This document shows, one piece after another, positions 3,169-15,773 of a stretch of 29,947 nucleotides of DNA (its first letter is position 1; each line of letters begins with the position of its first letter). Both the position numbers and the translations under genes were made by a program. The stretch is from a virus. The notes under the pieces are model-generated. The model saw only the letters and a program-made list of their open reading frames with translations, ran no database searches and had not been told where the DNA came from. The stretch lies in UHGV virus genome UHGV-0175251; one strand, written 5' to 3'.

Positions 3169-3378
3169 ATGATTTATACGCATGAAATGCTATGCGATGC
3201 CCGCCGGGCGTTACATGAACTGATGATCGGACGTGCTGTGGTTTCCGTCAGCAAGGACGGGCGTCAGGTTCAGTATTCGCGGGCGACAATTGGTGAACTG
3301 CGTCAGTATATTGAAGAGCTGGAAAGTGCGCTGGGTGTATCCGGACGGCGTCGTGGCCCGGCAGGAGTGGGGCTGTGA
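3169..3378 (+). CDS. W: head-tail joining protein (lambda gpW homolog)
   Basis: 69 aa ending RRRGPAGVGL, like lambda gpW (ends RRRGPAGFYV). Sits between A and B as in lambda. Confidence 0.85.
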   Translation: MIYTHEMLCDARRALHELMIGRAVVSVSKDGRQVQYSRATIGELRQYIEELESALGVSGRRRGPAGVGL

Positions 3379-4189
3379 ACGGGGAACTGGTGGATATTCA
3401 TGGGCAGCCTTTACGGCAAAGCATGGGATATTCTGGTGGTGGTTCCGGGTTCGGTGGGCAAATGGCAGAATGGCTGCCTGCACCGGAAAGTGCCGACGTG
3501 GCGCTCTTACCTTCCATTCATCTGGGTAACGCCCGCGCGGATGAGCTGGTCCGTAACAACGGTATTGCATCGAATGCAGTGGAAATTCATAAGGATCATA
3601 TTGTCGGGCACATGTTTCGTCTGAGTTACCGTCCCAACTGGCGCTGGCTGGGGATGTCGGAAGCAGATTCACATGCTTTTATTGAAGATGTTGAGGCGGC
3701 GTGGATGGAATACTGCGATCCGGTGTTTGGTACGATGGATGTGGAAGGGCGTCGTTCGTTTACCGAATTTATTCGTGAAGGGGTGGGGGTCCATACGTTT
3801 AACGGTGAAATTTTTGTCCAGCCCGTATGGGATGCGGAATCCACGTCATTATTCCGGACGAAATTCAAAACCATCAGCCCGAAGCGTGTCAGTACACCCG
3901 GTTATGGTACCGGCGATCGTTTTATGCGTGCCGGGGTGGAAATAAACCGACACGGAAAAGCGCTGGCCTACCATGTTCAGGATGATGACTGGCCCGGCTA
4001 CGGTGTCAGTAAATGGACACGAATTACGGCAACACTGCCTTCCGGACGACCGGGAATGATCCATGTGTTTCAGCCACAGGAAGACGGGCAGACCCGCGGG
4101 GCCAACCAGTTTTATTCTGTAATGGAGCGTCTCAAGATGCTCGACACACTGCAGGCCACGCAACTGCAGTCGGCGGTGGTTCGCGCCAT
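3375..4189 (+). CDS. B: portal protein (lambda gpB homolog), 5' segment; gene interrupted by the insertion at 4190
   Basis: GYSGGGSGFGG, GNARADELVRNNG, FNGEIFVQ and HVFQPQEDGQTRGANQFYSVMERLKMLDTLQATQLQSAVVRA match the lambda portal. Homology stops after codon RA at 4187; the frame then reads 17 unrelated codons to a stop at 4241. GTG start overlapping the W stop. Confidence 0.9.
4183..4189. repeat. left junction 7-bp direct repeat GCGCCAT (candidate attL overlap/core)
   Basis: The same 7 bp recurs at 15010-15016, exactly where portal homology stops and resumes. Flanking bases differ on both sides. Confidence 0.7.
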
Positions 4190-4317
4190 TTATGTCTATT
4201 ATCTCCCCGTAGTTGTCGCCACCATTCATCAACTCCACTAAAACCCTTGATATGTCTGGAATGTCGTTTTTTGTATTTATGATGACCGTTCATTACCTTT
4301 CGTGTTTTTCGCGGTTT

Positions 4318-4371
4318 TGTGTATTGCAATGTGTATTGCAAGTTGGCGTTTGGATGGGGTGTGTATTGCAA
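4318..4371. repeat. integrase arm-type repeats (left arm): three copies of TGTGTATTGCAA
   Basis: TGTGTATTGCAA at 4318-4329, 4330-4341 and 4360-4371. The 19-mer GTATTGCAATGTGTATTGC (4321-4339) is identical to 14916-14934 near the other end. Confidence 0.65.
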
Positions 4372-4390
4372 ATTGACGTGTAGGCTACAT

Positions 4391-5632
4391 ATGGCTATCG
4401 AGAATAAACTGACTGACAAACTTCTGAAAAGTCTTGCAGGTAAGCCGCAGGACAGACAAAAAATCATGGCTGATGGGCGGGGGCTATCTGTTCGTGTAAG
4501 CGTGGTTGGGGGAATTAGTTTCGTTTTTTACTATCGTATTGGCGGCAGGGATGCCCCTCCGGTATGGCTGACCCTTGGGCGTTATCCTGATATGTCTCTG
4601 GCAGCCGCCAGGAGATTACGCGACCAGTGCCGTGAATGGCTGGCGGAAAATCTGGATCCTCGCAGACAAATAAAACTTGTAGCTGAAAAAAACATGCGCC
4701 CTGTAACTGTAAGGGATGCGGTGCTTTACTGGTACGATAATCACGCCAGGACAGCCAGAAAGCAGCATGAGTATTTAATAAAAAGATTTGAAAAGCATAT
4801 TTTTCCATATATCGGAGATATGGCTATAGAACAGTGCAAATTGCATACCTGGCTTACTGTATTTGACAGAATTAAAAAAAATGCTCCTGTTATGTCTGGT
4901 GCTATTTTTCTTGATATTAAACAGGCGTTACGTTTTTGCCGTATCAGGCAATACATTAGTTGCGATCCATTCGGTGATATTAACGTTAGTTATGTTGGAC
5001 GTTCAGCAGGCATAAGGGATCGTGTTCTGAGTATTAATGAAGCCGCTGACGTATGGTCTTATGCCTATGGCAACAATTTACTTACCCTTTCATCAATACA
5101 TAACCGAAGAATTATGGTTATCTGCCTGGTGTTTGGTTGCCGTCAGCAGGAGGCGCGGTTATCCACTTGGGAAGAATGGGATTTAAAAAACTGGATTTGG
5201 ACAGTTCCAAAAGAGCACAGCAAGAACGGCGAGGTTATTGTAAGACCAGTCCCTGATGGAATAAAACAATGGGTTATTAATCTTTATGCGGAAACAAAGC
5301 ACCGGGATTGTGTTATCGGTAGATCACTGAAGCGAGCGACAATAACAGGAGCAGCAAGCCGGATATGCAGGCGGCTAGGGCATGATGTAAATGGTCTGTG
5401 GTGCATACATGATTTCAGGCGTACATTTTCAACAATGCTTAACGATATGGGTGCCGATCCTTATATTGTAGAGCTTCTGCTTGGTCATAAAGTTAAAGGT
5501 GTGGCGGGTGTTTATAATAAAAGCAAGCATGCAAAGAAAAAACTTGAGGTTCTTAATATGTGGGTTAATTACCTTAACACGATAGCCGGATTTAATAATA
5601 ACGTTATTGAACTGAGTAAAGAGGTTGTTTGA
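4391..5632 (+). CDS. int: tyrosine site-specific integrase (P4-type)
   Basis: 413 aa from ATG 4391. N-terminal arm-binding-like region (LTDKLLKSL...GRGLSVRVSVVGGISFVFYYRIGGR...LTLGRYPDMSLAAARR) and C-terminal catalytic motifs (HDFRRTF, LLGHK, VAGVYNK with the tyrosine). Confidence 0.9.
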   Translation: MAIENKLTDKLLKSLAGKPQDRQKIMADGRGLSVRVSVVGGISFVFYYRIGGRDAPPVWLTLGRYPDMSLAAARRLRDQCREWLAENLDPRRQIKLVAEKNMRPVTVRDAVLYWYDNHARTARKQHEYLIKRFEKHIFPYIGDMAIEQCKLHTWLTVFDRIKKNAPVMSGAIFLDIKQALRFCRIRQYISCDPFGDINVSYVGRSAGIRDRVLSINEAADVWSYAYGNNLLTLSSIHNRRIMVICLVFGCRQQEARLSTWEEWDLKNWIWTVPKEHSKNGEVIVRPVPDGIKQWVINLYAETKHRDCVIGRSLKRATITGAASRICRRLGHDVNGLWCIHDFRRTFSTMLNDMGADPYIVELLLGHKVKGVAGVYNKSKHAKKKLEVLNMWVNYLNTIAGFNNNVIELSKEVV

Positions 5633-5633
5633 T

Positions 5634-5891
5634 ATGTCAGTTTATTCACTTGTTGATGAAAAAGATTTTACTGCAATGCCGGATATTGATCGTGTCATTC
5701 GTGAAAAAGAATGCGTGGCACTTACTACGCTGGCAAATTCAACACGCTGGAAACTGGAAAAGACAGGTAAGTTCCCAAAACGTATTAAGATTGGTGAACG
5801 TGCCGCTGGCTATCGTCTCTCGGAGATTCAGGCGTGGATCCGTGGCGATTGGCACCCAGGATGGAAACCGGAAAAAACAAAACAGCAATAA
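5634..5891 (+). CDS. alpA: AlpA-family HTH regulator (possible excisionase)
   Basis: 85 aa, 1 nt after the int stop, GAGG SD. LANSTRWKLEKTGKFPKRIKIGERAAGYRLSEIQAWIR resembles the AlpA family. Confidence 0.7.
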   Translation: MSVYSLVDEKDFTAMPDIDRVIREKECVALTTLANSTRWKLEKTGKFPKRIKIGERAAGYRLSEIQAWIRGDWHPGWKPEKTKQQ

Positions 5892-5907
5892 CCAGGAGAT
5901 AAACACA

Positions 5908-5932
5908 GCCCCGCTCAATGCGGGGTTTTTTG
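5908..5932 (+). terminator. rho-independent terminator after alpA
   Basis: GCCCCGC / TCAAT / GCGGGG hairpin followed by TTTTTT. Confidence 0.75.
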
Positions 5933-5950
5933 TATGTGAGGTAAAAAGCG

Positions 5951-6529
5951 ATGAATAAAAATATTGCCGTGACGGGCAAAGGTGACGCTCGTCTAGTAAA
6001 AAAATTCTGTGATATTCGTGATCTGGTCGTTCTGCGCTTTGATGGTGTGAACGTTCGCGTGGTGTATCTGAACGGCGATCCGTGGTTTGTTGCAGTTGAC
6101 GTGTGCGCTGCGCTGGAAATTGTTGATCACAAGGTTGCGTTACGCCGTCTCGATGATGATGAAAAGGGGGAGTGTTTAATACCCACCCTTGGCGGAAATC
6201 AAACAATGCGAACTGTATGCGAGTCAGGTTTCTACAAACTAATAGCCCGTAGCCGCAAAGCAACGACGCCTGGCACGTTCGCCCATCGTTTCAGTAACTG
6301 GGTATTCAGAAATGTGATACCGGGTATCAGAAAAACGGGGGCTTATGGTATCCCGTGGGGCGCATTACAGGATTTTTCCCGCCGTAAAGAGCAATATCAG
6401 ATAAGTGCCAGCGAGAAGGGGAGGGAGCTACAGGCATGTAAGCGCAAAAAGCGTGAGCTGGAGGAAGAAGAAAAAAGGCTGATACGTGAATATCAGCCTG
6501 AGTTTTACTTTGGTGAGCGTATTCAGTAA
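5951..6529 (+). CDS. Bro-N domain protein (antirepressor-like)
   Basis: 192 aa; N-terminus LRFDGVNVRVVYLNGDPWFVAVDVCAALEI has the Bro-N / phage antirepressor signature; C-terminus charged. GAGGT SD before the ATG. Confidence 0.7.
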   Translation: MNKNIAVTGKGDARLVKKFCDIRDLVVLRFDGVNVRVVYLNGDPWFVAVDVCAALEIVDHKVALRRLDDDEKGECLIPTLGGNQTMRTVCESGFYKLIARSRKATTPGTFAHRFSNWVFRNVIPGIRKTGAYGIPWGALQDFSRRKEQYQISASEKGRELQACKRKKRELEEEEKRLIREYQPEFYFGERIQ

Positions 6530-6810
6530 CCACTCGCAGTGCTGATTATACGGTACATCGTGTTAACCGGGAAGCTACCCACCAGCAAGGCAAAATCTTC
6601 TGCTAAAAAATGATATATGGTCAGCCGTCCGGAAAGCATGAAATTTTACAAAAATGGAAAATGAAGATTTTTATTGTGCTGGTGGGTAAAAACAAAAAGC
6701 GCCCCGTTGCCGGAGCGCCTTTGTGAACAATTAACCTACTGCGCAAAAAATGAATCTGAGCAGTGGGATTATATCAACCGTGTGACGAAGCGCCACAATT
6801 GCCGGATAAC

Positions 6811-6842
6811 AGGCAAAACAAAGGCCACCCGCTACGGTGGCC
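6811..6842 (-). terminator. candidate intrinsic terminator for the leftward small-gene operon
   Basis: GGCCACC / CGCTAC / GGTGGCC perfect 7-bp stem; on the minus strand it is followed by TTTGTTTTG. Confidence 0.5.
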
Positions 6843-6960
6843 CTTCAACACAAGCTACACGTTATCCCCAACGCATGAGCATCACCAACAATGCCACATT
6901 TGCGGCTGGTGGGCAAAGCTTTAGCGGAATTTTTTCCCTGTTGCCTGGAGTGGGTAATGA

Positions 6961-7143
6961 TTACTTGTATCGCTTATTCCTGCACAAAACAGGGCTGCTC
7001 TTTTTGATGAAATCCTCAAGCAAAAAACACTCTGTTGATGCTCTTGGTAATTCTCTGGTGGAAGGATGGGGTTTTATCCCCCATTTTCGTTTACGTTCTT
7101 CCAGAAAGGAGGTGAGTATATCTAGTTTCTGTGCGTCCATCAT
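6961..7143 (-). CDS. hypothetical small protein (60 aa)
   Basis: Third ORF in a leftward series with regular 57-bp spacing; weak SD; no recognisable homology. Confidence 0.3.
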   Translation of the reverse strand: MMDAQKLDILTSFLEERKRKWGIKPHPSTRELPRASTECFLLEDFIKKSSPVLCRNKRYK

Positions 7144-7200
7144 TTTTCTCTTGGATACTTCTTTGTGCCATGGATCCTCACACCACGGCGCTGATAGTGG

Positions 7201-7398
7201 TTATTTCTGCTCTTCAACATCACCATGTCGTGATGTTTTCCAGGTATGCGACCCCATTTTTGTGCGCCTGTACTCTTTTAAGAACTTCTCAAGGCCAAAC
7301 GCACATGGCGCGAATCTCTCCTGTTCTTGTTCGCTTACCGCGTTTTTGCGTTGTTTTTTCCTGGATGAAGATAATTTCTTTAATGATTTGTCAGTCAT
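7201..7398 (-). CDS. hypothetical small basic protein (65 aa)
   Basis: Second ORF of the leftward series (MTDKSLKKLSSSRKKQRKNAV...); no recognisable homology. Confidence 0.35.
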   Translation of the reverse strand: MTDKSLKKLSSSRKKQRKNAVSEQEQERFAPCAFGLEKFLKEYRRTKMGSHTWKTSRHGDVEEQK

Positions 7399-7455
7399 CG
7401 TAGATACCTGTAACCCAGTGCGCCACAGTTCACCGCACCACGGCGCTGGTGATGG

Positions 7456-7635
7456 TTACTCCTGCTCTTTGGCCTTGCGACGCTGGCGGCGTTTGATCTC
7501 GCCTTGCATTGACGCAATGATGAATTGTGATGTGCTTTCGCCTGATTCTTTCACTGATTCCATGGCGTTTACTATTTCGTGTGGTACACGAGCCTTTAGA
7601 GCTTGTGATTTTGCGTTTGTTGTACCCGTTGCCAT
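7456..7635 (-). CDS. putative ribbon-helix-helix DNA-binding protein (candidate repressor)
   Basis: 59 aa from ATG at 7635-7633 with GAGG SD. ALKARVPHEIVNAMESVKE...TSQFIIASMQGEI fits a strand-helix-helix pattern. Transcribed divergently from the rightward operon. Confidence 0.5.
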   Translation of the reverse strand: MATGTTNAKSQALKARVPHEIVNAMESVKESGESTSQFIIASMQGEIKRRQRRKAKEQE

Positions 7636-7639
7636 TTCT

Positions 7640-7740
7640 ATTCCTCTGGTGGATTGGTGGGGAACAGTATACACAGAAAAAACACAAATAAAACTCTTGA
7701 CGTGGACCACACCTAAAACATATAGTGGGCCACACCTTAA
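7640..7740. promoter_or_regulatory. divergent promoter/operator region of the element
   Basis: Rightward TTGACG (7697-7702) and TATAGT (7721-7726), 18-bp spacer. Direct repeats TGGACCACACCT (7703-7714) and TGGGCCACACCT (7725-7736) overlap it. Leftward -10 TATACT on the minus strand around 7657-7662 precedes the RHH gene. Confidence 0.55.
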
Positions 7741-7834
7741 AATTATCAAGGCGCATAAATGCAAAGCCCCGCAAGTGTCGTTACCACTCGCAGGGCTTCT
7801 AACCACCAACGATAGAAAGAGTATCGAGGTAGCT

Positions 7835-8038
7835 ATGAGAAATCATACCACACACCCGCAAGGGCGGGACTCGCACAACCTGAATAAATACATCTGGCGT
7901 TTTATCGCCCTGAGCACGGCACAACCGCGCGTGATTACCATCGAGGCCACCAGCGAACAGGAAGCACGCCAGCAATCTCCGGCTGGCTGCGTGATGGTAT
8001 TCGCCGCCCGTATTCGCCAGGAGGTGCGCCATGATTAA
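7835..8038 (+). CDS. hypothetical protein (possibly Icd-like)
   Basis: 67 aa, first gene after the rightward promoter, GAGG SD. KYIWRFIALSTAQP...FAARIRQEVRH resembles Icd-like proteins of P4-type elements from memory only. Confidence 0.45.
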   Translation: MRNHTTHPQGRDSHNLNKYIWRFIALSTAQPRVITIEATSEQEARQQSPAGCVMVFAARIRQEVRHD

Positions 8039-8243
8039 CCTGTCACTTACCGACCTTAACCGCATTCAGTTTCGTGAGAAATTTACCGGGCAGTTGTTGG
8101 TTAATGTGGATAAAGGTCGCGTGGTGTGTAATTACCACCTGCCAGATGAAGCAATTGTCGCAACAAGGGAATCATTACAGGAACTCGCAGAGCGTGCCGG
8201 AATGATTAACGCGAATATTCAGGGGGTGAGACATGTGCAATAA
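8031..8243 (+). CDS. hypothetical protein (70 aa)
   Basis: ATG overlaps the upstream stop (translational coupling); part of the operon. Confidence 0.45.
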   Translation: MINLSLTDLNRIQFREKFTGQLLVNVDKGRVVCNYHLPDEAIVATRESLQELAERAGMINANIQGVRHVQ

Positions 8244-8496
8244 CCCCCGTCCGGACGCAGCCGCCGAAGCTATCAGAACGCTGATGCACGCGCTGATTGA
8301 TATTTCATGCACGGCAGCAACCGCAGAAAAACACATTACCATAGAGCCGGAATATACAGGGGCAATAATCCCGCATTCGCTGGCATACGCACAGCTTACC
8401 GCTGATATGGCACTGAATGAGGCCAAAGCTATCCTGATTGCTGATTGTGAAAATGGGGGGGGGTGGTTATGCGTGATGATCGTTTTAATGCCCTGA
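8233..8496 (+). CDS. hypothetical protein (87 aa)
   Basis: AGGGGG SD; overlaps neighbours; no recognisable homology. Confidence 0.4.
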   Translation: MCNNPRPDAAAEAIRTLMHALIDISCTAATAEKHITIEPEYTGAIIPHSLAYAQLTADMALNEAKAILIADCENGGGWLCVMIVLMP

Positions 8497-8702
8497 AACA
8501 GGAATTTGATGGCGCACCGGAAGATACAGATATTGCGCTGTTATGTGTTGCTGACATGGTAAAAGCTGCATGTTTTTTACTGGAAACCGCCGAACATTCA
8601 GGAACGGGTAGCGATATTCTCAATATTGCGTCGGACTATGCGGAATATGTGGCAGAGACGCGTTACAGAAGTAAATTCCCGGAGGGGGTGAGCCATGCAT
8701 GA
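8469..8702 (+). CDS. hypothetical protein (77 aa)
   Basis: G-rich SD; first in-frame ATG at 8469 (track start 8463 is GTG). Confidence 0.4.
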   Translation: MRDDRFNALKQEFDGAPEDTDIALLCVADMVKAACFLLETAEHSGTGSDILNIASDYAEYVAETRYRSKFPEGVSHA

Positions 8703-8928
8703 TATTTACAATGACACAGTAGACCATGCATACAGCGCACTTGCTTACAGTGAAAACATGCTTGAAATATTGCGCTTATGGCTTGAAACGCTTGGCGATA
8801 ATGAAAGAGATAAACGCAACAGCAATATTGCAACAGCATTAATAACGCTTCTTGAGCCTGTAATAAATGAACTGCAAGAAATAGACATCTTGCACGACAG
8901 ATATAAAGAGCCACACACCGGAGAATAA
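8695..8928 (+). CDS. hypothetical protein (77 aa)
   Basis: GGAGGGGG SD; start overlaps the upstream stop. Confidence 0.45.
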   Translation: MHDIYNDTVDHAYSALAYSENMLEILRLWLETLGDNERDKRNSNIATALITLLEPVINELQEIDILHDRYKEPHTGE

Positions 8929-8933
8929 AAACC

Positions 8934-9233
8934 ATGAAAAAGAAAAATTCTGGCTTTACTGCCAGCGGCCCCGCTCGGCCTGAAATCCGCCCAGGCGATA
9001 TTTTCCGGGATAACTACGGCGGCACGGTAACGATTAAAAGTATTGCCGGACGGTGCGTTACTTACCGCCGTGATGGGTACAGCTACGACTGCGTGATGCC
9101 TGTTTATCAGTTCCGGCGTGATTTTTCGCTGGTACAGGCCACACCACGCAGACAGCCCACCAGCAACGCAAAGGCACGGGCAAATATTCAGAAAATGAAA
9201 AACATGATTAACGCATTCAGGGGTAAAAAATGA
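8934..9233 (+). CDS. hypothetical protein (99 aa)
   Basis: GGAGAA SD; its stop overlaps the start of the replication gene (ATGA). Confidence 0.45.
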   Translation: MKKKNSGFTASGPARPEIRPGDIFRDNYGGTVTIKSIAGRCVTYRRDGYSYDCVMPVYQFRRDFSLVQATPRRQPTSNAKARANIQKMKNMINAFRGKK

Positions 9234-10645
9234 AACTGGCACCGAACTTAAAAAAACAGCCGCACGACAAAATGACCGAAGTCATTATTTTTGCGGGTAG
9301 TGATGCCTGGGCGCACGCGAAACAGTGGCAGGAACAGGACGGGCGACTTGCTGGCGACAACGTGCCGCCTGTATGGCTTGGAGACAACCAGCTTGACGAA
9401 CTGGCAGACCTGAAAATCATCGATGATGGTCGCTATTGTGTCCGGCTGTACAAGGCAGGCCACATCAAGCCGTCAAATATTAATGCCATCGGGCAAAAGC
9501 TGGCGGCGGCAGGTGTACGGGATGCGAATTATTACCCTGAGGGAATGCACAGCCAGAAGCTGGAGAACTGGCACGACTACCTGCAACGGATCCGCGAACA
9601 GGCAGAGCGCGGGGAAATACTTACTGACGAGCAATACAGCCAGCGAAAAACCACACTACCAATGAGCATTGGGTCCGCAGGATACGACACACAGCTTGAT
9701 TATGTCGTTAAGGGCGTGATTCCGGCTAATTCGTTGTGCAGCACATACGGCGCGAGCGGTTCCTATAAATCGTTCCTCGCGTGTTCCTGGGCGTGTCATG
9801 TTGCCACGGGTCGCCACTGGGGAGGCCGCAGGGTGGCGCATGGTTCGGTGATGTATGTTGTCGGTGAAGGGGGTATAGGTGTCCCCCGCCGTATCAAGGC
9901 ATGGGAAATCGTTAATGATGAACGGGTGGAAAATTTGTACCTGGTAAACCGCCCGATTTTTCCGGCTGTCCCGCTTGATGTTGATGAAATGGTTATCGCG
10001 TCCCGCCAGGTTGAACGGGAAACGGGTAAACCGGTACGCATGATTATTCTGGATACGCTGGCGCGTTGCTTTGGTGGTAATGATGAAAATGACGCGCGGG
10101 ATATGGGGGCGTTTATCCGTGGATGTGACGAACTGAAACGACGCACAGGGGCCACGGTGCTGGTGGTTCACCATTCCGGCAAGGATGAAACAAAGGGGGC
10201 ACGTGGTTCCAGTGCATTTCGTGCATCTCTGGACGCTGAATACCGTATTCGCCGTGAAGGTGCGGACAGTGAAGCCCTGGTTATCTCCTGCACCAAAATG
10301 AAGGACGCGGAGGAACTGAAAGAGGCTGCATATGATTTACGCGTGGTGGAGCTTTTTACCGACGCTGACAAGGAGTTAATCACGTCGCTGGTGGTTGTGG
10401 ATAAGCCGCGCCCACCAGTTGAACTGGAGCGCATCGAGGAAGCCGGGAACAAGACGGAGAATCACGCCGCGCTATGGGGCTGTATCCGTTCACGCACACA
10501 GCGCGGCGATAAATGCACTATCCCGTTATTGCGTGATGATATGAAAAAGCTGGGGTATGAGATGAAGCACTTTAGTCGCTGGTTACGCAAGCTGGAAAGT
10601 GACGACGTAATCGCTATTGACGGCGATGATGTTCACCCGATGTAA
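9230..10645 (+). CDS. replication initiator / RepA-like (AAA_25-type) helicase
   Basis: 471 aa. Deviant Walker A GASGSYKS, Walker B-like RMIILDTLARCF and VLVVHHSGKDETKG motif typical of RepA-like RecA-fold helicases. Iterons immediately downstream. Primase activity cannot be judged from sequence alone. Confidence 0.7.
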   Translation: MKLAPNLKKQPHDKMTEVIIFAGSDAWAHAKQWQEQDGRLAGDNVPPVWLGDNQLDELADLKIIDDGRYCVRLYKAGHIKPSNINAIGQKLAAAGVRDANYYPEGMHSQKLENWHDYLQRIREQAERGEILTDEQYSQRKTTLPMSIGSAGYDTQLDYVVKGVIPANSLCSTYGASGSYKSFLACSWACHVATGRHWGGRRVAHGSVMYVVGEGGIGVPRRIKAWEIVNDERVENLYLVNRPIFPAVPLDVDEMVIASRQVERETGKPVRMIILDTLARCFGGNDENDARDMGAFIRGCDELKRRTGATVLVVHHSGKDETKGARGSSAFRASLDAEYRIRREGADSEALVISCTKMKDAEELKEAAYDLRVVELFTDADKELITSLVVVDKPRPPVELERIEEAGNKTENHAALWGCIRSRTQRGDKCTIPLLRDDMKKLGYEMKHFSRWLRKLESDDVIAIDGDDVHPM

Positions 10646-10850
10646 AAAGTGGGGAACAAAAGTGGGGAGAGTGGGGAATTTAACAAAAAATCAACGTTAC
10701 TCCCCACTTTCCCACCTGTATATACCCAAAAAAGTGGGGAGTAAAAAACACATTGAAAAACATCACGTTAGAATCACAAAAAAACGAGGTGGGGAGCAAG
10801 TGGGGAATTTTAAAAAGTGGGGAACAAAAGTGGGGAGTGGTGGGGAATGA
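10646..10850. repeat. iteron array: about 10 copies of GTGGGGA (candidate ori)
   Basis: GTGGGGA at 10649, 10662, 10671, 10734, 10789, 10800, 10817, 10830, 10840 and inverted (TCCCCAC) at 10701, set in A-rich DNA directly after the rep stop. Confidence 0.75.
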
Positions 10851-11098
10851 ACAGAAAAACCAGAGATAAAACAGTGCCAAAATATCGCGCATTAGACATG
10901 ACAGAGCACGCCTTAAAGGTGGCAATCAGAACGATAGACCGCCACGCCGGGGAAGGATACGCGAAAGCACATCCCGAACTGATAAGCGCATTCATGGCCA
11001 CGACGGCGGCAAACTTTGCCACGCTGACAGAACGGGAGATTGCCGAAGCGGAACAGGTGACAACCATCAACGTTAAAACCGGAGAGCAAACAGCATGA
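10847..11098 (+). CDS. hypothetical protein (83 aa)
   Basis: ATG at 10847 at the end of the iterons; overlaps the SSB start. Confidence 0.4.
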   Translation: MNRKTRDKTVPKYRALDMTEHALKVAIRTIDRHAGEGYAKAHPELISAFMATTAANFATLTEREIAEAEQVTTINVKTGEQTA

Positions 11099-11517
11099 CA
11101 GCACAGATAGCGGCTTACGGGCGGCTGGTGGCTGACCCACAGTTAAAGACCACCAGCAAAGGGACACAAATGGCGATGGCGAGTATGGCGGTTCCCCTGC
11201 CGTGCAGCCAAGCAGATGACGGAACGGCGACGATGTGGTTATCCGTCCTGGCGTTTGGCAGACAGGCCGACGCACTGGCAAAACACCACAAAGGCGAACT
11301 GGTGAGCGTGGCGGGTAACATGCAGGTAAGCCAGTGGACAGGCCAGAACGGCGAAACGCGGCAGGGCTGGCAGGTTATCGCAGACAGCGTAATCAGTGCC
11401 AGAACGGCGCGACCGGGCGGCAAAAAAGGCCAGCAGGGCCAGGCTACTGACGCACTGAACAGGGCAAAACAACAGGCGGGAAATGATGATCCGTACTGGG
11501 ATAACATACCGTTTTAA
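11095..11517 (+). CDS. ssb: single-stranded DNA-binding protein
   Basis: 140 aa with OB-fold-like pattern (GRLVADPQL...W.SV.AFG..A..L.KH.KGELVSVAG...W....G..R....V) and an acidic C-terminal tip ...DPYWDNIPF resembling the E. coli SSB DDDIPF tail. Confidence 0.65.
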   Translation: MTAQIAAYGRLVADPQLKTTSKGTQMAMASMAVPLPCSQADDGTATMWLSVLAFGRQADALAKHHKGELVSVAGNMQVSQWTGQNGETRQGWQVIADSVISARTARPGGKKGQQGQATDALNRAKQQAGNDDPYWDNIPF

Positions 11518-11533
11518 GCAACGAGTGACAGAA

Positions 11534-11597
11534 GCCGGGATTTTTCCCGGCTTTTTTGTGCGCAAAAAAAATCCCCCGGGATGAGGTTCCGGGGGAT
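11534..11597. terminator. pair of hairpins: + strand terminator (11534-11558) and a minus-oriented one (11571-11597)
   Basis: GCCGGGA / TTTTT / TCCCGGC then TTTTTT; followed by AAAAAAAA, ATCCCCCGG / 9-nt loop / CCGGGGGAT. Confidence 0.7.
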
Positions 11598-11674
11598 TTC
11601 ACGCCGCTAACGTGATTAGCGCTGAATGACTCTGTGGTACAAGGAGTAAAACCACGGCATCATGATTTCATGAT

Positions 11675-11723
11675 TTGCAACAACAGTCAATGTCATTGCA
11701 AAAAATGCAATGATAATTAAAAT
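11675..11723 (+). promoter_or_regulatory. candidate promoter with overlapping palindromic operator for the capsid module
   Basis: TTGCAA (11696-11701), 16-bp spacer, TAAAAT (11718-11723). Perfect palindrome CATTGCA-AAAAA-TGCAATG (11694-11712) overlaps the -35. Confidence 0.45.
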
Positions 11724-11775
11724 CATGAATGACTTTTCGTTATGTTTATTTTTTAGTCAAAGAGGAATCTCATTT

Positions 11776-11982
11776 ATGGGAACACAGAAGCCGGGCGGTG
11801 TATCCGTGTACATCAGCCCCGATATTATCGCCGCACTTAATGCGCGCTTTGAGGAGAACGCAGAGGCAGGAAAAAAAATCGGCCTTGATCCGTTGTGCCT
11901 GGTGAAGCCGTCAGTCGGCTGGATGGTACGCAGCCATTTACGCGCTGCGCTTGGTATGAATCAGCCTCATGGGGGTGAGTAA
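11776..11982 (+). CDS. hypothetical small protein, possibly ribbon-helix-helix
   Basis: 68 aa, AAGAGG SD. VSVYISPDIIAALNARFEENAEAGKK...WMVRSHLRAAL is compatible with an RHH fold. Stop overlaps the capsid-homolog start. Confidence 0.4.
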   Translation: MGTQKPGGVSVYISPDIIAALNARFEENAEAGKKIGLDPLCLVKPSVGWMVRSHLRAALGMNQPHGGE

Positions 11983-13037
11983 TGACAGCGCCGCAACTGG
12001 TAAGCACACCAACGCTACTGAAAAATATCGGGCGCGAAGATGTGCCGGAATTTAAATTTAATCCACTCTTTACTACGTTGTTCTTTCCGAACGTCGCTAC
12101 TTTCAGCACCAGAGATATTGCACTTGATACGCTGGATATTGAAAACGTGGTCATGAGTCCGTTTTGTTCTCCAATGTCAGGCAGCCAGGTTATGCGTGAC
12201 AAAGGTTTCACAACGAACACGTTCACGCCGGGTTATATGAAGCCCAAACACGTTATTGATCCCACCAAAACAATCATGCGCATGGCTGGAGAACAGATCG
12301 GCAATGGTCAGTCTTCCCCGGCACTACGCCGCGTAAAAATGGTTCACGACAGCCAGAAAAAACAGCTTGCTGCCATCAAAGCGCGTGTTGAATGGCTGGC
12401 GGTCAATGCCATCACAACAGGCCGTAACGTTATTGAAGGCGAAGGCATTGAGCGTTATGAAATTGACTGGGGATTACCCGCAACCAATCATATTACGCAG
12501 GCTGGCGGGAAAGAATGGTCAAAACAGGATGCCGAAACGTTTGATCCGATAAGCGACATTGAGGCTTACGCTGATTTTTCCAAAGGTACGGTAAATATTA
12601 TCGTCATGGGTGGCGAAGCCTGGCGTATTTTGCGCTCGTTCCGTCGATTCCGCGAACTCCTGGACACGCGTCGCGGTTCAAACTCGTCACTTGAACTTGC
12701 GCTAAAAGATTTGGGCGGCGTTGTCAGCTTCAAGGGGTATCTCGGTGATGTGGCGCTCGTGGTTTATTCCGGTCGTTATGACGACGAATACGGGCAGCAG
12801 CAATATTTCCTGAAACAAAACATGCTGGTTTTCGGCAATACCGAAAATAAAGGCCTTGTTGCTTATGGTGCCATCATGGATCAGGACGCGGCACGCGAGG
12901 GGTTTTCTGAGGGGATGTACTACCCGAAAAATTATATCGTACCTGGCGATCCGGCGATTGAATACGTGCAGACGCACAGCGCCCCGCAGCCAGTACCCGT
13001 GGATATTGGTCGCTTTGTTACCGTCGAAGTGAAATAA
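11982..13037 (+). CDS. major capsid protein homolog (lambda gpE-like), element-encoded
   Basis: 351 aa. Shares FTPGY.KPKH, NITQAGG[KR]EWSKQ[DN]A[ED]TFDP, REKLDTRRGS, ALKDLG.VVSFKGY, GNT...G..YGAI.D and YPK motifs with the prophage E protein (17825-18853) and with lambda gpE. Confidence 0.9.
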   Translation: MTAPQLVSTPTLLKNIGREDVPEFKFNPLFTTLFFPNVATFSTRDIALDTLDIENVVMSPFCSPMSGSQVMRDKGFTTNTFTPGYMKPKHVIDPTKTIMRMAGEQIGNGQSSPALRRVKMVHDSQKKQLAAIKARVEWLAVNAITTGRNVIEGEGIERYEIDWGLPATNHITQAGGKEWSKQDAETFDPISDIEAYADFSKGTVNIIVMGGEAWRILRSFRRFRELLDTRRGSNSSLELALKDLGGVVSFKGYLGDVALVVYSGRYDDEYGQQQYFLKQNMLVFGNTENKGLVAYGAIMDQDAAREGFSEGMYYPKNYIVPGDPAIEYVQTHSAPQPVPVDIGRFVTVEVK

Positions 13038-13047
13038 AGGGGATCGT

Positions 13048-13377
13048 ATGCCAACACCTTACACGCAATTCCTTTCCGGCACGCAGGAACTGGTCAGCAC
13101 GCTGGCCTGTTTTGCCAGTGCCGGAGAAATTAAAGCGAGAACTCCGCTGATGCAGAACGGCGCGGGCCTGATGGTTGAGTGGGACGGTACACCCGGTAAG
13201 GCGGTGTATCTGACCATATCGGACATTAACACGGCCACAAAAAACCGCGCACAGGTTTATAAGTGCGGGGTTTTTAATATCGATGAAATTAACTGGCCTG
13301 ATACAGCGGACACGTTCGAGAAAAAAGTGTCGGCTTTTGTTGGTTCCGGTATTTCCGTGCAGCCTTTAGGGCAATAA
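13048..13377 (+). CDS. head decoration protein homolog (lambda gpD-like), element-encoded
   Basis: 109 aa directly after the capsid homolog. TPLM, WDG and AFVGSGIS motifs shared with the prophage D (17420-17755). Confidence 0.7.
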   Translation: MPTPYTQFLSGTQELVSTLACFASAGEIKARTPLMQNGAGLMVEWDGTPGKAVYLTISDINTATKNRAQVYKCGVFNIDEINWPDTADTFEKKVSAFVGSGISVQPLGQ

Positions 13378-13391
13378 TTTTGTGGTGATTT

Positions 13392-13817
13392 ATGACTGAG
13401 AAAGCAAATTCAACCAGAGCATTGATCATGGCACTGCCTGAGGCGCAGAAATACCCGACGCTTGCGGAAAATCTCGCAAATAATGGCGCATCACTGACAG
13501 AAGCCCGAACGGTGCTTACTGCAAAGGCTGAGAGTGATAAACAGCGCATAGAGGGTATCAAGGCGTTACCGCTGGCATCAAAATACCCTGAGTTCACCAG
13601 TAAGCTGATTGAGTGTGGTTCTGAAGTAATGACAGTAACCTATGCACAAACGTTACTGGCTGCCGTGGATGCCCAGGCAATGATGCAGGAAAAGAAAACG
13701 GCTTTTCTGTTTGAAGCGTACATGGAAAAGCACAGCCCGAAATGTGTTGGATCAGCAGCCGGTGATGGCAACGCCGGACTGACCGAAGATGAAAAGCTGT
13801 TGCTGTCTGTTAAGTAA
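13392..13817 (+). CDS. scaffold-like protein (Nu3-like repeats), element-encoded
   Basis: 141 aa. Two repeat-like units (ALPEAQKYPTLAENL..., ALPLASKYPEFTSKL...) and C-terminus TAFLFEAYMEKH...GDGNAGLTEDEKLL resemble the repeat unit and C-terminus of the prophage C/Nu3 (...VTLFERFMAQH...GTAGNGEEELL). Confidence 0.6.
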   Translation: MTEKANSTRALIMALPEAQKYPTLAENLANNGASLTEARTVLTAKAESDKQRIEGIKALPLASKYPEFTSKLIECGSEVMTVTYAQTLLAAVDAQAMMQEKKTAFLFEAYMEKHSPKCVGSAAGDGNAGLTEDEKLLLSVK

Positions 13818-13830
13818 CTGAAATGAACGT

Positions 13831-13863
13831 TCGCGAGGCTGGCAAGGTCTCGCGATTTTTTTT
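13831..13863 (+). terminator. rho-independent terminator after the capsid module
   Basis: TCGCGAG / 11-nt loop / CTCGCGA followed by eight Ts. Confidence 0.8.
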
Positions 13864-13896
13864 GTATCCGTAACGGTGGTGATCGCCCCAATTTTC

Positions 13897-13975
13897 ACGG
13901 GTCCTTTCCAGAACCAGAAACACCGCGGGGCGGCAGACGCGCAAAAAAGCGCTATTTATGACGCTTTCCGGGAAA
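13897..13975 (+). promoter_or_regulatory. element-borne cos site
   Basis: ACGGGTCCTTTCC (13897-13909), GGGGCGGCAG (13927-13936) and GCTATTTATGA (13951-13961) reproduce the prophage cos motifs at 509/540/564 with nearly identical spacing (30 vs 31 and 24 vs 24 nt). Flanking sequence differs. Confidence 0.75.
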
Positions 13976-14028
13976 GGGTACACCACCACCACTTGATTAA
14001 TATTTAATCGCATTATTAAGGTAACGTT

Positions 14029-14469
14029 ATGAATAATAAAGATTGTTTTGTTAGTCAGCAGGAAATAGCAGAACATTTCAAGGTCAACAGAACCACTATT
14101 CGCGCATGGACCAAACAGGGCATGCCGTATCTTGATGCGGATCGCGGAAAGTCCGGCGGTTATCACATCGGACACACATTATTCTGGTGCATGGGTAAAA
14201 GTCATCTTGATGCTATTGAGTACCACGGAGAAACCAGCGCACTGGAAAAGATTATGGTTGCCAGGTTGATTTCATTAGAGCGCGACGAGTATTTCAGTGA
14301 AGAAACAGAACAGCGATTTGATAATGGTCTGCAGATTTACGGGTACTCGCCGGAAGATGTGAGCAAGGCACGAAATAAAATGGCTGGCTTTCTGGCTGGG
14401 TGGCGTCATGCCGTAGCCGTTCGCCGTGAGCATCTGCAACAATCTGTAGTTACAGAGCAGGAAAACTAA
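14029..14469 (+). CDS. small terminase-like protein (Nu1-like N-terminal HTH)
   Basis: 146 aa just downstream of the element cos. N-terminus VSQQEIAEHFKVNRTTIRAWTKQGMPYLDADRGKSGG parallels Nu1 ([24 protein letters not shown]...GGSKG). The C-terminal half is unrelated to Nu1. Confidence 0.65.
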   Translation: MNNKDCFVSQQEIAEHFKVNRTTIRAWTKQGMPYLDADRGKSGGYHIGHTLFWCMGKSHLDAIEYHGETSALEKIMVARLISLERDEYFSEETEQRFDNGLQIYGYSPEDVSKARNKMAGFLAGWRHAVAVRREHLQQSVVTEQEN

Positions 14470-14476
14470 TAAGTAT

Positions 14477-14573
14477 GCAATACAACAACCGCGTATTTTT
14501 GTTAAACCATTTGATTTAATTGGCATTTTTGGAGCCATAACATCAAAAAAACACCCTCAGGTTGTTGTATTGC
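14477..14573. repeat. 14-bp perfect inverted repeat GCAATACAACAACC / GGTTGTTGTATTGC separated by 69 bp
   Basis: 14477-14490 and 14560-14573; contains the GTATTGC motif also present in the arm-type repeats. Confidence 0.5.
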
Positions 14574-14751
14574 TTTCAGTTTTCTCTTAGTTATCAAATG
14601 GATATAACAAACAATTAAACAACAACCACCCCCTCAAAAAATCTCATAAACAGCGCGTTTTTGCGCGTATGGCTACCCCCGGTGTTTTATTTTCCAGGAA
14701 GGACCCGCCACAATTACGGCATTGTTTTCCATCACCACGGAGGCCATGACA

Positions 14752-14937
14752 ATGACCGAAGCCGAAATGCTCAAAATGATTCGCCGCGTTACCGGATCCA
14801 GCAAGACAGCAGGCAAACAGGAGACCACGCAGCCGGACAGCGTGATAGCCGAAAATTACGCGCGTGTGGTGGCTGAGGTGATGCGCCGTGACGGTATTCA
14901 CAAGCAACAATTTGCGTATTGCAATGTGTATTGCTAA
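14752..14937 (+). CDS. hypothetical small protein (about 61 aa)
   Basis: GGAGG SD at 14739-14743; the 3' end runs into the arm-type repeats. Coding status uncertain. Confidence 0.3.
   Translation: MTEAEMLKMIRRVTGSSKTAGKQETTQPDSVIAENYARVVAEVMRRDGIHKQQFAYCNVYC
14913..14936. repeat. integrase arm-type repeats (right arm)
   Basis: TGCGTATTGCAA + TGTGTATTGCTA; the 19-mer GTATTGCAATGTGTATTGC at 14916-14934 is identical to 4321-4339. Confidence 0.65.
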
Positions 14938-15009
14938 CCCTCCAAACGGGGGAAATATGCAAACATAACATATTGTTTTGTCTTTTTATTTTTTCGTATC
15001 TTTTCATAA

Positions 15010-15016
15010 GCGCCAT
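15010..15016. repeat. right junction 7-bp direct repeat GCGCCAT (candidate attR overlap/core)
   Basis: Identical to 4183-4189; portal homology resumes exactly here. Confidence 0.7.
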
Positions 15017-15773
15017 GTATGCCGCCACGATTGAATCCACACTGGATTCGGAAAAAGCGTTTGAATATATCGCCGGGGTGGGAGATGGAGGTAAAAATCC
15101 CCTGAACACCATCATGAAAGGCTACGCGCGTTATTACGCCACCAATACGGTAAAACTGGGCGGGGTCCGTATTCCGCATCTTTACCCGGGAGATTCACTG
15201 AATCTGCAGACAGCCCAGAATGCGGATAATGGTTTTTCTGAACTGGAAAAGGCGCTGTTACGTTACATTGCTGCCGGACTGGGTGTGTCGTATGAGCAGC
15301 TTTCCCGGGATTATTCACAGGTCAGTTATTCCAGTGCCAGGGCATCCGCCAATGAGTCGTGGCGGTATTTTATGGGAAAACGAAAATTTGTGGCCAGTCG
15401 CCTGGCGTCACAGATGTTTGCCTGCTGGCTGGAGGAAGCCCTTATTCGTGGTGTGATCCGTCCGCCGAAATCCCGTTTCTCATTCTGGGAGGCTCGTTCC
15501 GGGTGGTGCCGTGCCGAGTGGATTGGTGCCGGTCGTATGGCGATTGATGGCCTTAAGGAAGTGCAGGAAGCGGTGATGCGCATTGAAGGCGGCCTGAGTA
15601 CATACGAGAAAGAGCTGGCCCTGATGGGGGATGACTATCAGGAGATTTTCCGCCAGCAGCTACGGGAAACTCAGGAGCGACAGGCTGCCGGTCTTCCGCG
15701 TCCGGTCTGGATAAAGAACGCGTTTCAACAGCAGATCCGACAGACAACGGGAGAAAAAGGCGATGCGCTGTAA
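15017..15773 (+). CDS. B: portal protein (lambda gpB homolog), 3' segment
   Basis: (S)AMYAATIES..., GVRIPHLYPGDSLNLQTAQNADNGF, LLRYIAAGLGVSYEQLSRDYSQVSYSSARASANESW and GRMAIDGLKEVQEAVM match the C-terminal half of the lambda portal. Joined to 3375-4189 it gives a continuous 523-codon ORF. Confidence 0.9.

Follow-up and report, generated by a model that had tools for sequence, protein, structure and literature searches.

[quoted passage not shown] Judged from its sequence, the module appears to be a common version of a known design, in which a helicase reads its own repeat-built origin and an SSB is optional. The first-pass annotation had described the replication module of an excisable element, composed of helicase, iteron origin and SSB, and we recovered all of its parts: an ATPase-fold helicase, iterons that covary with Rep, an SSB and the island boundaries.

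The module lies in a 10.8 kb PICI island (4190–15016) inserted within the lambda-type portal gene of a prophage, and the junctions are defined by an identical 7-mer and by the two halves of the interrupted gene:

4183–4189, + strand: attL core GCGCCAT, left island boundary
15010–15016, + strand: attR core GCGCCAT, right island boundary
3375–4241: left half of the portal gene, Phage_portal_2 profile positions 2–242
14919–15773: right half of the portal gene, Phage_portal_2 profile positions 235–353

Joining position 4189 to 15017 restored the portal gene: the 400-nt junction sequence aligned in one piece, at 100% identity, with intact portal genes of other E. coli. The interruption falls at profile position ~240, a precise insertion of the kind that marks an HE-PICI. 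Another att candidate, a 19-nt repeat found at 4321 and again at 14916, was dropped, since the empty-site reconstruction favours the 7-bp core. The island carries integrase, Bro-N, rep, SSB, and capsid E-like and D-like genes, and follows the Gram-negative PICI/HE-PICI layout: a small island with unidirectional int, regulator, Bro, replication and late zones, and without tail or lysis genes. Pfam identified no AlpA in the island, and an Rfam scan at gathering thresholds found no RNA elements there. Published HE-PICIs likewise lie within lambda-type late genes, oriented the same way, their site B:Phage_portal_2:241 matches the insertion seen here, and their four zones (integration, Bro, replication with SSB, late) are all present in the window island (PMC10111431). 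The element is an HE-PICI in the portal gene. It differs from the model element 11capE, which has a capsid-gene site and an SF3-type 'DNA primase family' Rep, in using the portal gene and an AAA_25 Rep; the replication category of HE-PICIs comprises Primase, SSB and DUF5906 families, not AAA_25 (PMC10111431). The experimentally tested PICIs EcCICFT073 and 11capE (and EcCIEDL933, per its authors' statement) have an SF3-type Rep, and we found no description of an AAA_25 or RepA-type Rep in PICIs in the literature.

We then resolved the Rep protein into three parts, the last of which is assigned as winged-helix-like by prediction:

9230–10645, + strand: rep, 471 aa; N-domain, RepA/DnaB-type RecA-fold core and C-terminal winged-helix-like domain
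9230–9622, + strand: N-terminal domain, aa 1–131; alpha/beta, function not assigned, common to the SF3-type Rep of EcCICFT073
9683–10399, + strand: helicase core, aa ~152–390; P-loop GASGSYKS, Walker B ILDTLAR and HHSGK motif, from alignment to RSF1010 RepA and fold searches
10418–10642, + strand: C-terminal domain, aa 397–471; three helices and a beta-hairpin in the secondary structure of the model
10571–10600, + strand: predicted recognition helix, aa 448–457; His448 tracks iteron base 4

Both motifs named in the earlier reading (GASGSYKS, here within YGASGSYKS, and VLVVHHSGK) are present in this 471-aa open reading frame, and the profile search proposed there returned Pfam AAA_25 (E 3.2e-44, aa 152–320), with the RecA-fold core above the gathering threshold of this family of RepA/DnaB-like SF4 helicases; fold searches also gave a helicase fold. 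No match to the Rep_3 fold of iteron-plasmid initiators (RepA/RepE/pi) was obtained in Rep, the protein being a helicase fusion. RSF1010 RepA is a bare helicase that works beside a separate RepC (iteron binding) and RepB' (primase); compared with it (PDB 1g8y), the window Rep adds a fused origin-recognition domain (predicted), an extra N-domain and a deviant P-loop. The Walker A motif was correctly called deviant: GASGSYKS has Tyr at the second-Gly position of the canonical GxxxxGK[ST] and keeps the Lys-Ser pair. In the structure model, a monomer computed from a 66-sequence alignment that replaced a poor 16-sequence version (pLDDT 61), this P-loop lies between strand 169–174 and helix 180–193.

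Because the P-loop is non-canonical, the ATPase activity of Rep is assumed from the invariance of the motif, and the same deviation, together with the lack of a primase domain, could be taken as a sign of a module in decay or already inactive, with Rep a dead ATPase and the island wholly reliant on helper replication. We consider such decay very improbable. The variant is conserved across the subfamily: GASGSYKS is invariant in 16 homologues and the majority residue among 66, and it persists as invariant or majority in homologues down to ~30% identity, including those fused to a primase. Conservation extends to Lys180, Asp275, the HH motif and Arg325, intact copies number in the hundreds, and the codon differences (31 synonymous vs 1 non-synonymous) show purifying selection.

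The N-terminal domain shares 62% identity with aa 1–134 of the EcCICFT073 Rep, where the similarity ends, and it also occurs fused to DUF927 proteins. Searches for a primase in Rep aa 1–140 gave no Pfam match beyond one noise hit, even at E 10, and when the N-domain was compared in hhalign with Toprim regions of relatives (two alignments, three modes), the probability stayed <1%. Rep has no zinc ribbon or Cys cluster and no Toprim or AEP primase signature, the module encodes no polymerase, and Rep does not qualify as a bifunctional primase-helicase of the T7 gp4 or P4 alpha kind. A phrog_864 'DNA primase' match (aa 3–135) is confined to a non-catalytic part of a 1064-position profile, and some Foldseek matches are Toprim-helicases over the full protein length, a whole-protein comparison that carries no domain-level information. 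The helicase and C-terminal domain are 50–70% identical to those of AAA_25 primase-helicases of phages and islands (Zn-ribbon/Toprim or Prim-Pol/PriCT_2 fusions). These relatives measure ~680–700 aa and carry a zinc ribbon and Toprim (EGYATA, DxD), where the window Rep has the 131-aa domain instead; in Xenorhabdus, Serratia, Pectobacterium and Morganella, their genes are followed by an iteron array in the same layout as in the window. The description of the module as 'self-contained' goes too far: helicase, origin and SSB are present, but a primase signature and a polymerase are absent and the SSB is missing in many relatives, which makes the module dependent on the primase and polymerase of the host.

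Immediately downstream of rep, we mapped the repeat array, which had been estimated at about ten GTGGGGA copies in about 200 bp and contains exactly ten in 10649–10846, all on the + strand except for a single − strand copy at 10701:

10649–10677, + strand: left iteron set, three direct GTGGGGA (10649, 10662, 10671)
10697–10744: origin core, formed by two 14-nt iteron arms in perfect inverted repeat (10697–10710 and 10731–10744) with a 20-nt intervening spacer holding TGTATATA (10717–10724)
10741–10788: A+T-rich spacer, 29% G+C, between origin core and right iteron set
10789–10846, + strand: right iteron set, five direct GTGGGGA (10789, 10800, 10817, 10830, 10840)

Shuffling gave a mean of 4.73 GTGGGGA per whole window, or 0.03 per 198 bp; a one-mismatch copy lies at 10709. 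The first iteron begins 3 nt past the rep stop codon, an origin position directly 3' of the initiator gene that recurs in related loci, and an iteron array directly follows rep in ~65 of 79 loci across many Enterobacterales genera. The two sets (3 left, 5 right) flank an A+T-rich region as in PICI-type origins; the central 111 bp between them have 34% G+C (22–29% outside the two iterons they contain) and hold the inverted pair, whose arms are 100% complementary. At the position of TGTATATA, TGTATAYA was found in 20 of 79 related loci vs 1% of random windows, and we propose the origin core as a candidate site of melting and helicase loading. Neither a DnaA box (<=1 mismatch) nor an IHF consensus was found in 10500–11000, which is consistent with Rep-driven initiation.

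The same layout has been examined experimentally in EcCICFT073, the Pri-Rep/ori prototype, in which two iteron sets surround an A+T-rich region directly 3' of rep, the rep-ori segment drives plasmid replication, and deletion of the origin significantly lowers plasmid maintenance (PMC6092414). After this allele, the rep-ori segment of the window would constitute an autonomous replicon. SaPIs usually have a separate or fused primase; in layout, SaPI Rep/ori follows the same logic, with an initiator-helicase whose specificity matches iterons 3' of its gene, again in two sets with an A+T-rich region (PMC6092414).

The repeats might instead serve mainly as operators for orf83-ssb or for rep autoregulation, with the origin elsewhere or the island copied passively with the helper prophage. 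The array does occupy the entire rep–orf83 intergenic region, reaching the orf83 start codon, and plasmid iterons are often autoregulatory sites as well; 11capE, moreover, was amplified mostly within the composite. Three observations make this account improbable: no sigma-70-like promoter was predicted in 10646–10846 (by a scan that failed to detect the clear terminators as well), loci without orf83 or ssb downstream have the same array after rep, and the inverted pair around a TATATA core with an A+T-rich spacer reproduces the layout of the origin defined in EcCICFT073 (PMC6092414). Operator and origin roles of the repeats are compatible, not mutually exclusive. For 11capE, which has the other rep allele and is the sole HE-PICI followed after induction, attP:attB was ~1 in two of three repeats, hence little or no replication of the excised island, and 1.6–1.9 in the third (PMC10111431); this result counts against autonomous replication of the module.

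We compared the C-terminal domain of Rep with the repeats of each locus. Pfam found nothing in this domain and a PDB profile search nothing significant (best suggestion a CRP-type HTH, E 0.86); its winged-helix assignment is predicted from secondary structure and the covariation that follows. A KHF motif in Rep accompanies GTGGGGA iterons, KNF accompanies GTGAGGA, KSF or KGF accompanies GTGCGG, and KKF accompanies GTGGGGGA, with zero exceptions in 69 classified loci, a covariation that is partly confounded by common ancestry of the loci. Iteron base 4 follows the residue of the recognition helix (H with G, N with A, S/G with C) across genera and also within E. coli. A prediction for the H-to-N change, fixed beforehand, held in four of five further alleles (E. 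coli P0010, P0030, P0061 and P0045); the fifth, P0069 of Salmonella, has a mixed iteron array.

Comparison with EcCICFT073 (PMC6092414) revealed the same gene order, int ... DUF4222, rep, ori, orf83, ssb, capsid and decoration, with identities of 70% for DUF4222, 82% for orf83, 70% for SSB and 65% for capsid. The DNA homology breaks exactly at 9583–10886, a segment that takes in the helicase core along with the DNA-binding domain and the iteron array. Across this break, the EcCICFT073 Rep consists of D5_N, DUF5906 and Pox_D5 (SF3), whereas the window Rep is of the RepA/DnaB-type AAA_25 family; the C-terminal domains differ, and the iterons are GGTAGAYA in EcCICFT073 and GTGGGGA in the window. 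Relative to EcCICFT073, helicase core, C-terminal domain and iterons have thus been exchanged as a single block for an unrelated helicase type. This exchange as one cassette and the motif/iteron covariation indirectly suggest that the specificity of Rep matches its own iterons. Both observations also bear on whether the repeats are a packaging signal (terminase small-subunit sites, cosB-like) instead of an origin: the island has a small HTH protein (14029–14469) and late genes, and cosB is likewise built of repeats (PMC6092414), but the window repeats covary with the Rep C-terminal domain and were exchanged with the helicase, not with late genes, and the arrays are present in relatives with very different late regions. 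A packaging role is extremely unlikely.

The origin assignment is accompanied by a conserved set of neighbouring genes, closed by terminators; of these features, the first-pass annotation named ssb alone:

8934–9233, + strand: DUF4222 gene (Pfam DUF4222, E 1.5e-24), stop overlapping the rep start by 4 nt (ATGA)
10847–11098, + strand: orf83, 83 aa (phrog_1231, E 5.5e-49), function not assigned, stop overlapping the ssb start
11095–11517, + strand: ssb, 140 aa (Pfam SSB 3.9e-16, aa 5–99; TIGR00621 1.8e-16, above its cut-off)
11525–11600: back-to-back intrinsic terminators (+ strand 11525–11563, − strand 11560–11600) closing the early/replication operon

In Escherichia PICIs (L001, L083–L093), rep is consistently preceded by the DUF4222 gene, which the non-Escherichia relatives examined lack; orf83, between iterons and ssb, has an equally placed annotated counterpart in both L001 and L083. 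The SSB homolog with a DNIPF tip was confirmed as an OB-fold protein (PF00436) ending in DDPYWDNIPF, an acidic/hydrophobic C-terminal tip of the ...D-I-P-F type that serves in partner recruitment by SSBs; the tip of E. coli SSB is ...DDDIPF. Of nine further rep loci found by exact protein look-up (mostly E. coli), four have no SSB (L085, L088, L089, L092), and neither does any of the 78 non-Escherichia loci; SSB is an accessory, non-obligatory part of the module. The terminators fold at −22.5 kcal/mol (z −4.6) and −25.8 kcal/mol (z −4.2), with a U-run after each hairpin.

We propose that Rep acts as an initiator-helicase whose C-terminal winged-helix-like domain would recognise the GTGGGGA iterons. 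Copies of Rep would first occupy both sets of direct repeats together with the inverted iteron pair at the centre; bound Rep would then melt the TGTATATA/A+T-rich core, and the RepA/DnaB-type RecA-fold core would load as a ring helicase. Since no primase is recognisable in Rep, priming and synthesis would have to be supplied by host DnaG and Pol III or by helper-phage functions, and the island SSB, with its host-like ...IPF tip, probably coats the unwound DNA and recruits host proteins. That Rep binds and melts DNA and forms hexamers, that host factors take part and that the island is amplified after induction is inferred from the features described above; the autonomous replication after excision expected in the first-pass annotation would follow by analogy with EcCICFT073.

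Two further readings, which we regard as doubtful when taken jointly, concern the specificity of Rep and its N-domain. The recognition helix may set iteron base 4 (G, A, C or GG) through its first residue (His, Asn, Ser/Gly or Lys), making rep-ori specificity re-programmable by one residue, and the rep/iteron allele series suggests a near one-residue/one-base relationship. The 131-aa N-domain, present in two unrelated helicase superfamilies alongside an island SSB, may be an adaptor to host DnaG or the replisome that stands in for the fused primase of relatives. If true, such a code would yield orthogonal replicons and let several satellites coexist in one cell; it may explain how satellites avoid origin cross-talk, and could supply orthogonal origins for engineering. 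The combination of no primase, a common N-domain and an optional SSB raises the question of how satellites tap the host replisome. PICIs and cf-PICIs move genes for virulence, resistance and defence, and they rely on the replication module to be amplified once induced.

Finally, we surveyed the distribution of the module. A phage origin was considered and rejected: megablast against 50,697 phage records gave no match, and by tblastn the best named phages reach <=40% identity over the helicase core, the best match (54% over the same core) being a Salmonella draft-genome record within the phage collection. Module DNA was detected in 1884 of 5426 E. coli genomes; among complete genomes of this species, roughly one in three contains DNA matching the module and about a tenth contain most of it, yet the experiments to date have all been performed on the unrelated SF3 allele.

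The first-pass annotation had described a self-contained replication module: a RepA-like helicase with a deviant P-loop and a VLVVHHSGK motif, about ten GTGGGGA iterons in some 200 bp, and an SSB homologue with a DNIPF tip. All three components were confirmed, and the profile search it proposed for the rep protein matched Pfam AAA_25 (E 3.2e-44); orf83, the DUF4222 gene and the terminator pair are additions to it.

Features of the replication module (window coordinates).
8934-9233: DUF4222 gene, its stop overlapping the rep start
9230-10645, + strand: rep, 471 aa, with YGASGSYKS and VLVVHHSGK motifs
10649-10846: ten exact GTGGGGA copies
left iterons: three direct copies, the first 3 nt past the rep stop codon
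10697-10710 and 10731-10744: inverted iteron pair, perfect, 14 nt, enclosing TGTATATA
spacer after the inverted pair: 48 bp, 29% G+C
right iterons: five direct copies beyond the spacer
10847-11098: orf83, a conserved 83-aa ORF (phrog_1231) between the repeats and ssb
11095-11517: ssb, 140-aa SSB (Pfam 3.9e-16; TIGR00621 above cut-off), ending in DNIPF
11525-11600: two back-to-back intrinsic terminators closing the module

The terminators appear as two strong convergent hairpins directly 3' of ssb; a consensus terminator scan reported neither. Within the origin, nine of the ten exact GTGGGGA copies are on the + strand and the tenth on the - strand, and an eleventh copy has a single mismatch; shuffles of the window give an expectation of 4.7 copies per whole window, or 0.03 per 198 bp. 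A search of the origin revealed neither a DnaA box nor an IHF consensus. The motif TGTATAYA between the inverted pair (10717-10724) was conserved in 20 of 79 related origins versus 1% of random windows, lying 56-74 nt past the rep stop irrespective of iteron type, and may be a melting or priming site.

The AlphaFold model of Rep (pLDDT 91.5; 66-sequence alignment) revealed an alpha/beta domain at residues 1-131, and three helices plus a beta-hairpin, a winged-helix topology, at residues 397-471. The deviant P-loop (Tyr for Gly) is invariant within the subfamily, and of the codon changes separating rep from a copy in another strain, 31 are synonymous and 1 is non-synonymous. Relatives with other N-termini keep the same helicase and C-terminal domain, the alternatives being a zinc ribbon plus Toprim (EGYATA, DxD), Prim-Pol/PriCT_2 and a DnaB N-terminal domain. 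A third class of N-terminus (about 120 aa, starting MS.PLRLTEPLSDALF...) occurs on the same helicase and DNA-binding domain in L030, L036, L047 and similar loci; therefore, the N-terminal slot takes at least five different domains. Residues 1-131 matched no Pfam family and bore no significant resemblance to Toprim, in the place where some relatives carry primase domains. Rep is therefore best described as an initiator-helicase without primase; its assigned NCBI name is "helicase RepA family protein".

We compared the module with that of EcCICFT073, the prototype Gram-negative PICI, which is syntenic with the window island (protein identity: DUF4222 70%, orf83 82%, SSB 70%, capsid 65%). Similarity between the two Reps is confined to the first ~131 residues (62% identity), and DNA homology ends at 9583 and restarts at 10886. 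Within this gap EcCICFT073 encodes D5_N, DUF5906 and Pox_D5 (SF3 helicase) followed by GGTAGAYA iterons, whereas the window has a helicase of RepA/DnaB type with another C-terminal domain, and GTGGGGA iterons. These results indicate that helicase core, DNA-binding domain and origin were exchanged as one cassette, with the neighbours and the N-terminal domain unchanged in place. The EcCICFT073 rep-ori segment sustains plasmid replication, and its origin is an A+T-rich region between two iteron sets directly 3' of rep (PMC6092414), the same layout as in the window. The EcCIEDL933 rep is that of EcCICFT073 by its authors' statement. The tested PICIs EcCICFT073 and 11capE, the latter helper-embedded, have an SF3-type Rep, unlike the window; of three post-induction repeats with 11capE, two gave an attP:attB ratio near 1 and one gave 1.6-1.9. 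From the sister allele, it can reasonably be inferred that the excised element would replicate autonomously. The earlier description stands as to a replication module of an excisable element, but not as to "self-contained", since the host or the helper has to supply primase and polymerase.

We examined rep-iteron pairing in 80 fetched loci encoding relatives (one genome per species), 79 of them with enough downstream sequence. About 65 of the 79 had an iteron array directly past the rep stop in the same layout. The repeat sequence varied by lineage and followed one position of the predicted recognition helix, with 0 exceptions in 69 classifiable loci. Before rep alleles were fetched by protein look-up, we recorded the prediction that E. 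coli KNF alleles would have GTGAGG repeats.

Recognition-helix motifs and iterons, by lineage and in the fetched alleles.
KHF: GTGGGGA
KNF: GTGAGGA
K(V)RKSF: GTGCGGC
SKKF: GTGGGGGA
P0010, P0030 and P0061, KNF: AAAGTGAGG
P0045, KNM: GTGAG
P0077, KHL: GTGGG then a non-G base
P0089, KHF: GTGGGGA
Enterobacter allele, KGF: GTGCG
P0069 (Salmonella), KNF: mixed array

Primase-fused Xenorhabdus proteins show the His/Asn switch, as do E. coli N-domain proteins, and the covariation is therefore not explained by shared ancestry alone. Separately, a sub-group from Xenorhabdus and relatives (L025, L080, L005, L015) has ATGAGGAA-type repeats in place of GTGAGGA, and its Rep has the recognition-helix end KLEND versus KLEQD, which may mark a second specificity position; one X. 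bakwenae genome has both repeat types.

Helicase, C-terminal domain and iterons together make up the conserved unit. In the 78 non-Escherichia loci, no SSB, orf83 or DUF4222 was found beside rep, and ssb was missing from 4 of 9 further rep loci (exact protein look-up; mostly E. coli). In this phylogenetically narrow sample, SSB was seen only with Reps lacking a primase domain, which weakly suggests that it helps recruit host priming functions via its ...IPF tip.

Of 5426 complete E. coli genomes, 1884 gave megablast matches to the module (572 covering most of it); a set of 50,697 phage records gave no close match. Classical PICIs carry the module, and so does a cf-PICI-like element: in E. coli 2014C-3075 (L001, 14991-29377), rep-ori-orf83-ssb (97% nt identity) is part of a capsid-forming, PICI-like element encoding HK97-type capsid, protease, portal, HNH, TerS and TerL, inserted in the terL (terminase large-subunit) gene of a Stx1d-encoding prophage. 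Our literature search found no paper on this rep type in PICIs; cassette exchange and residue-base covariation are the module's most useful aspects.

The module is part of a 10.8-kb island (4190-15016) that interrupts a lambdoid prophage in its lambda-type portal gene, whose two pieces are 3375-4241 and 14919-15773. The 7-bp core GCGCCAT marks each junction (4183-4189, 15010-15016). When 4189 is joined to 15017, the resulting sequence aligns without a break to uninterrupted portal genes of other E. coli, at 100% identity across 400 nt. Besides the replication genes, the island encodes an integrase and a Bro-N protein and has small early genes and late genes. It is a helper-embedded PICI of the published type, and its insertion point corresponds to site B:Phage_portal_2:241 of Tommasini et al. 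(PMC10111431); as long as the island stays integrated, the prophage is unable to produce portal protein. In the late zone (11982-14469), genes for a lambda E-like major capsid protein and a D-like decoration protein are accompanied by two ORFs of 141 and 146 aa, the latter with weak HTH matches and possibly TerS-like.

Region 6600-8000, where an Rfam gathering scan returned no immunity RNAs, matches the zone in which published work places them; it has no convincing + strand gene and shows 90-96% identity to an EcCICFT073 region of minus-strand YlcI/YnfO-like genes and an Icd-like gene. Just within both island ends lie TGTATTGCAA-type repeats (three copies at 4318-4379, two at 14916-14934), which are candidate integrase arm-type sites or binding sites for excisionase/AlpA.
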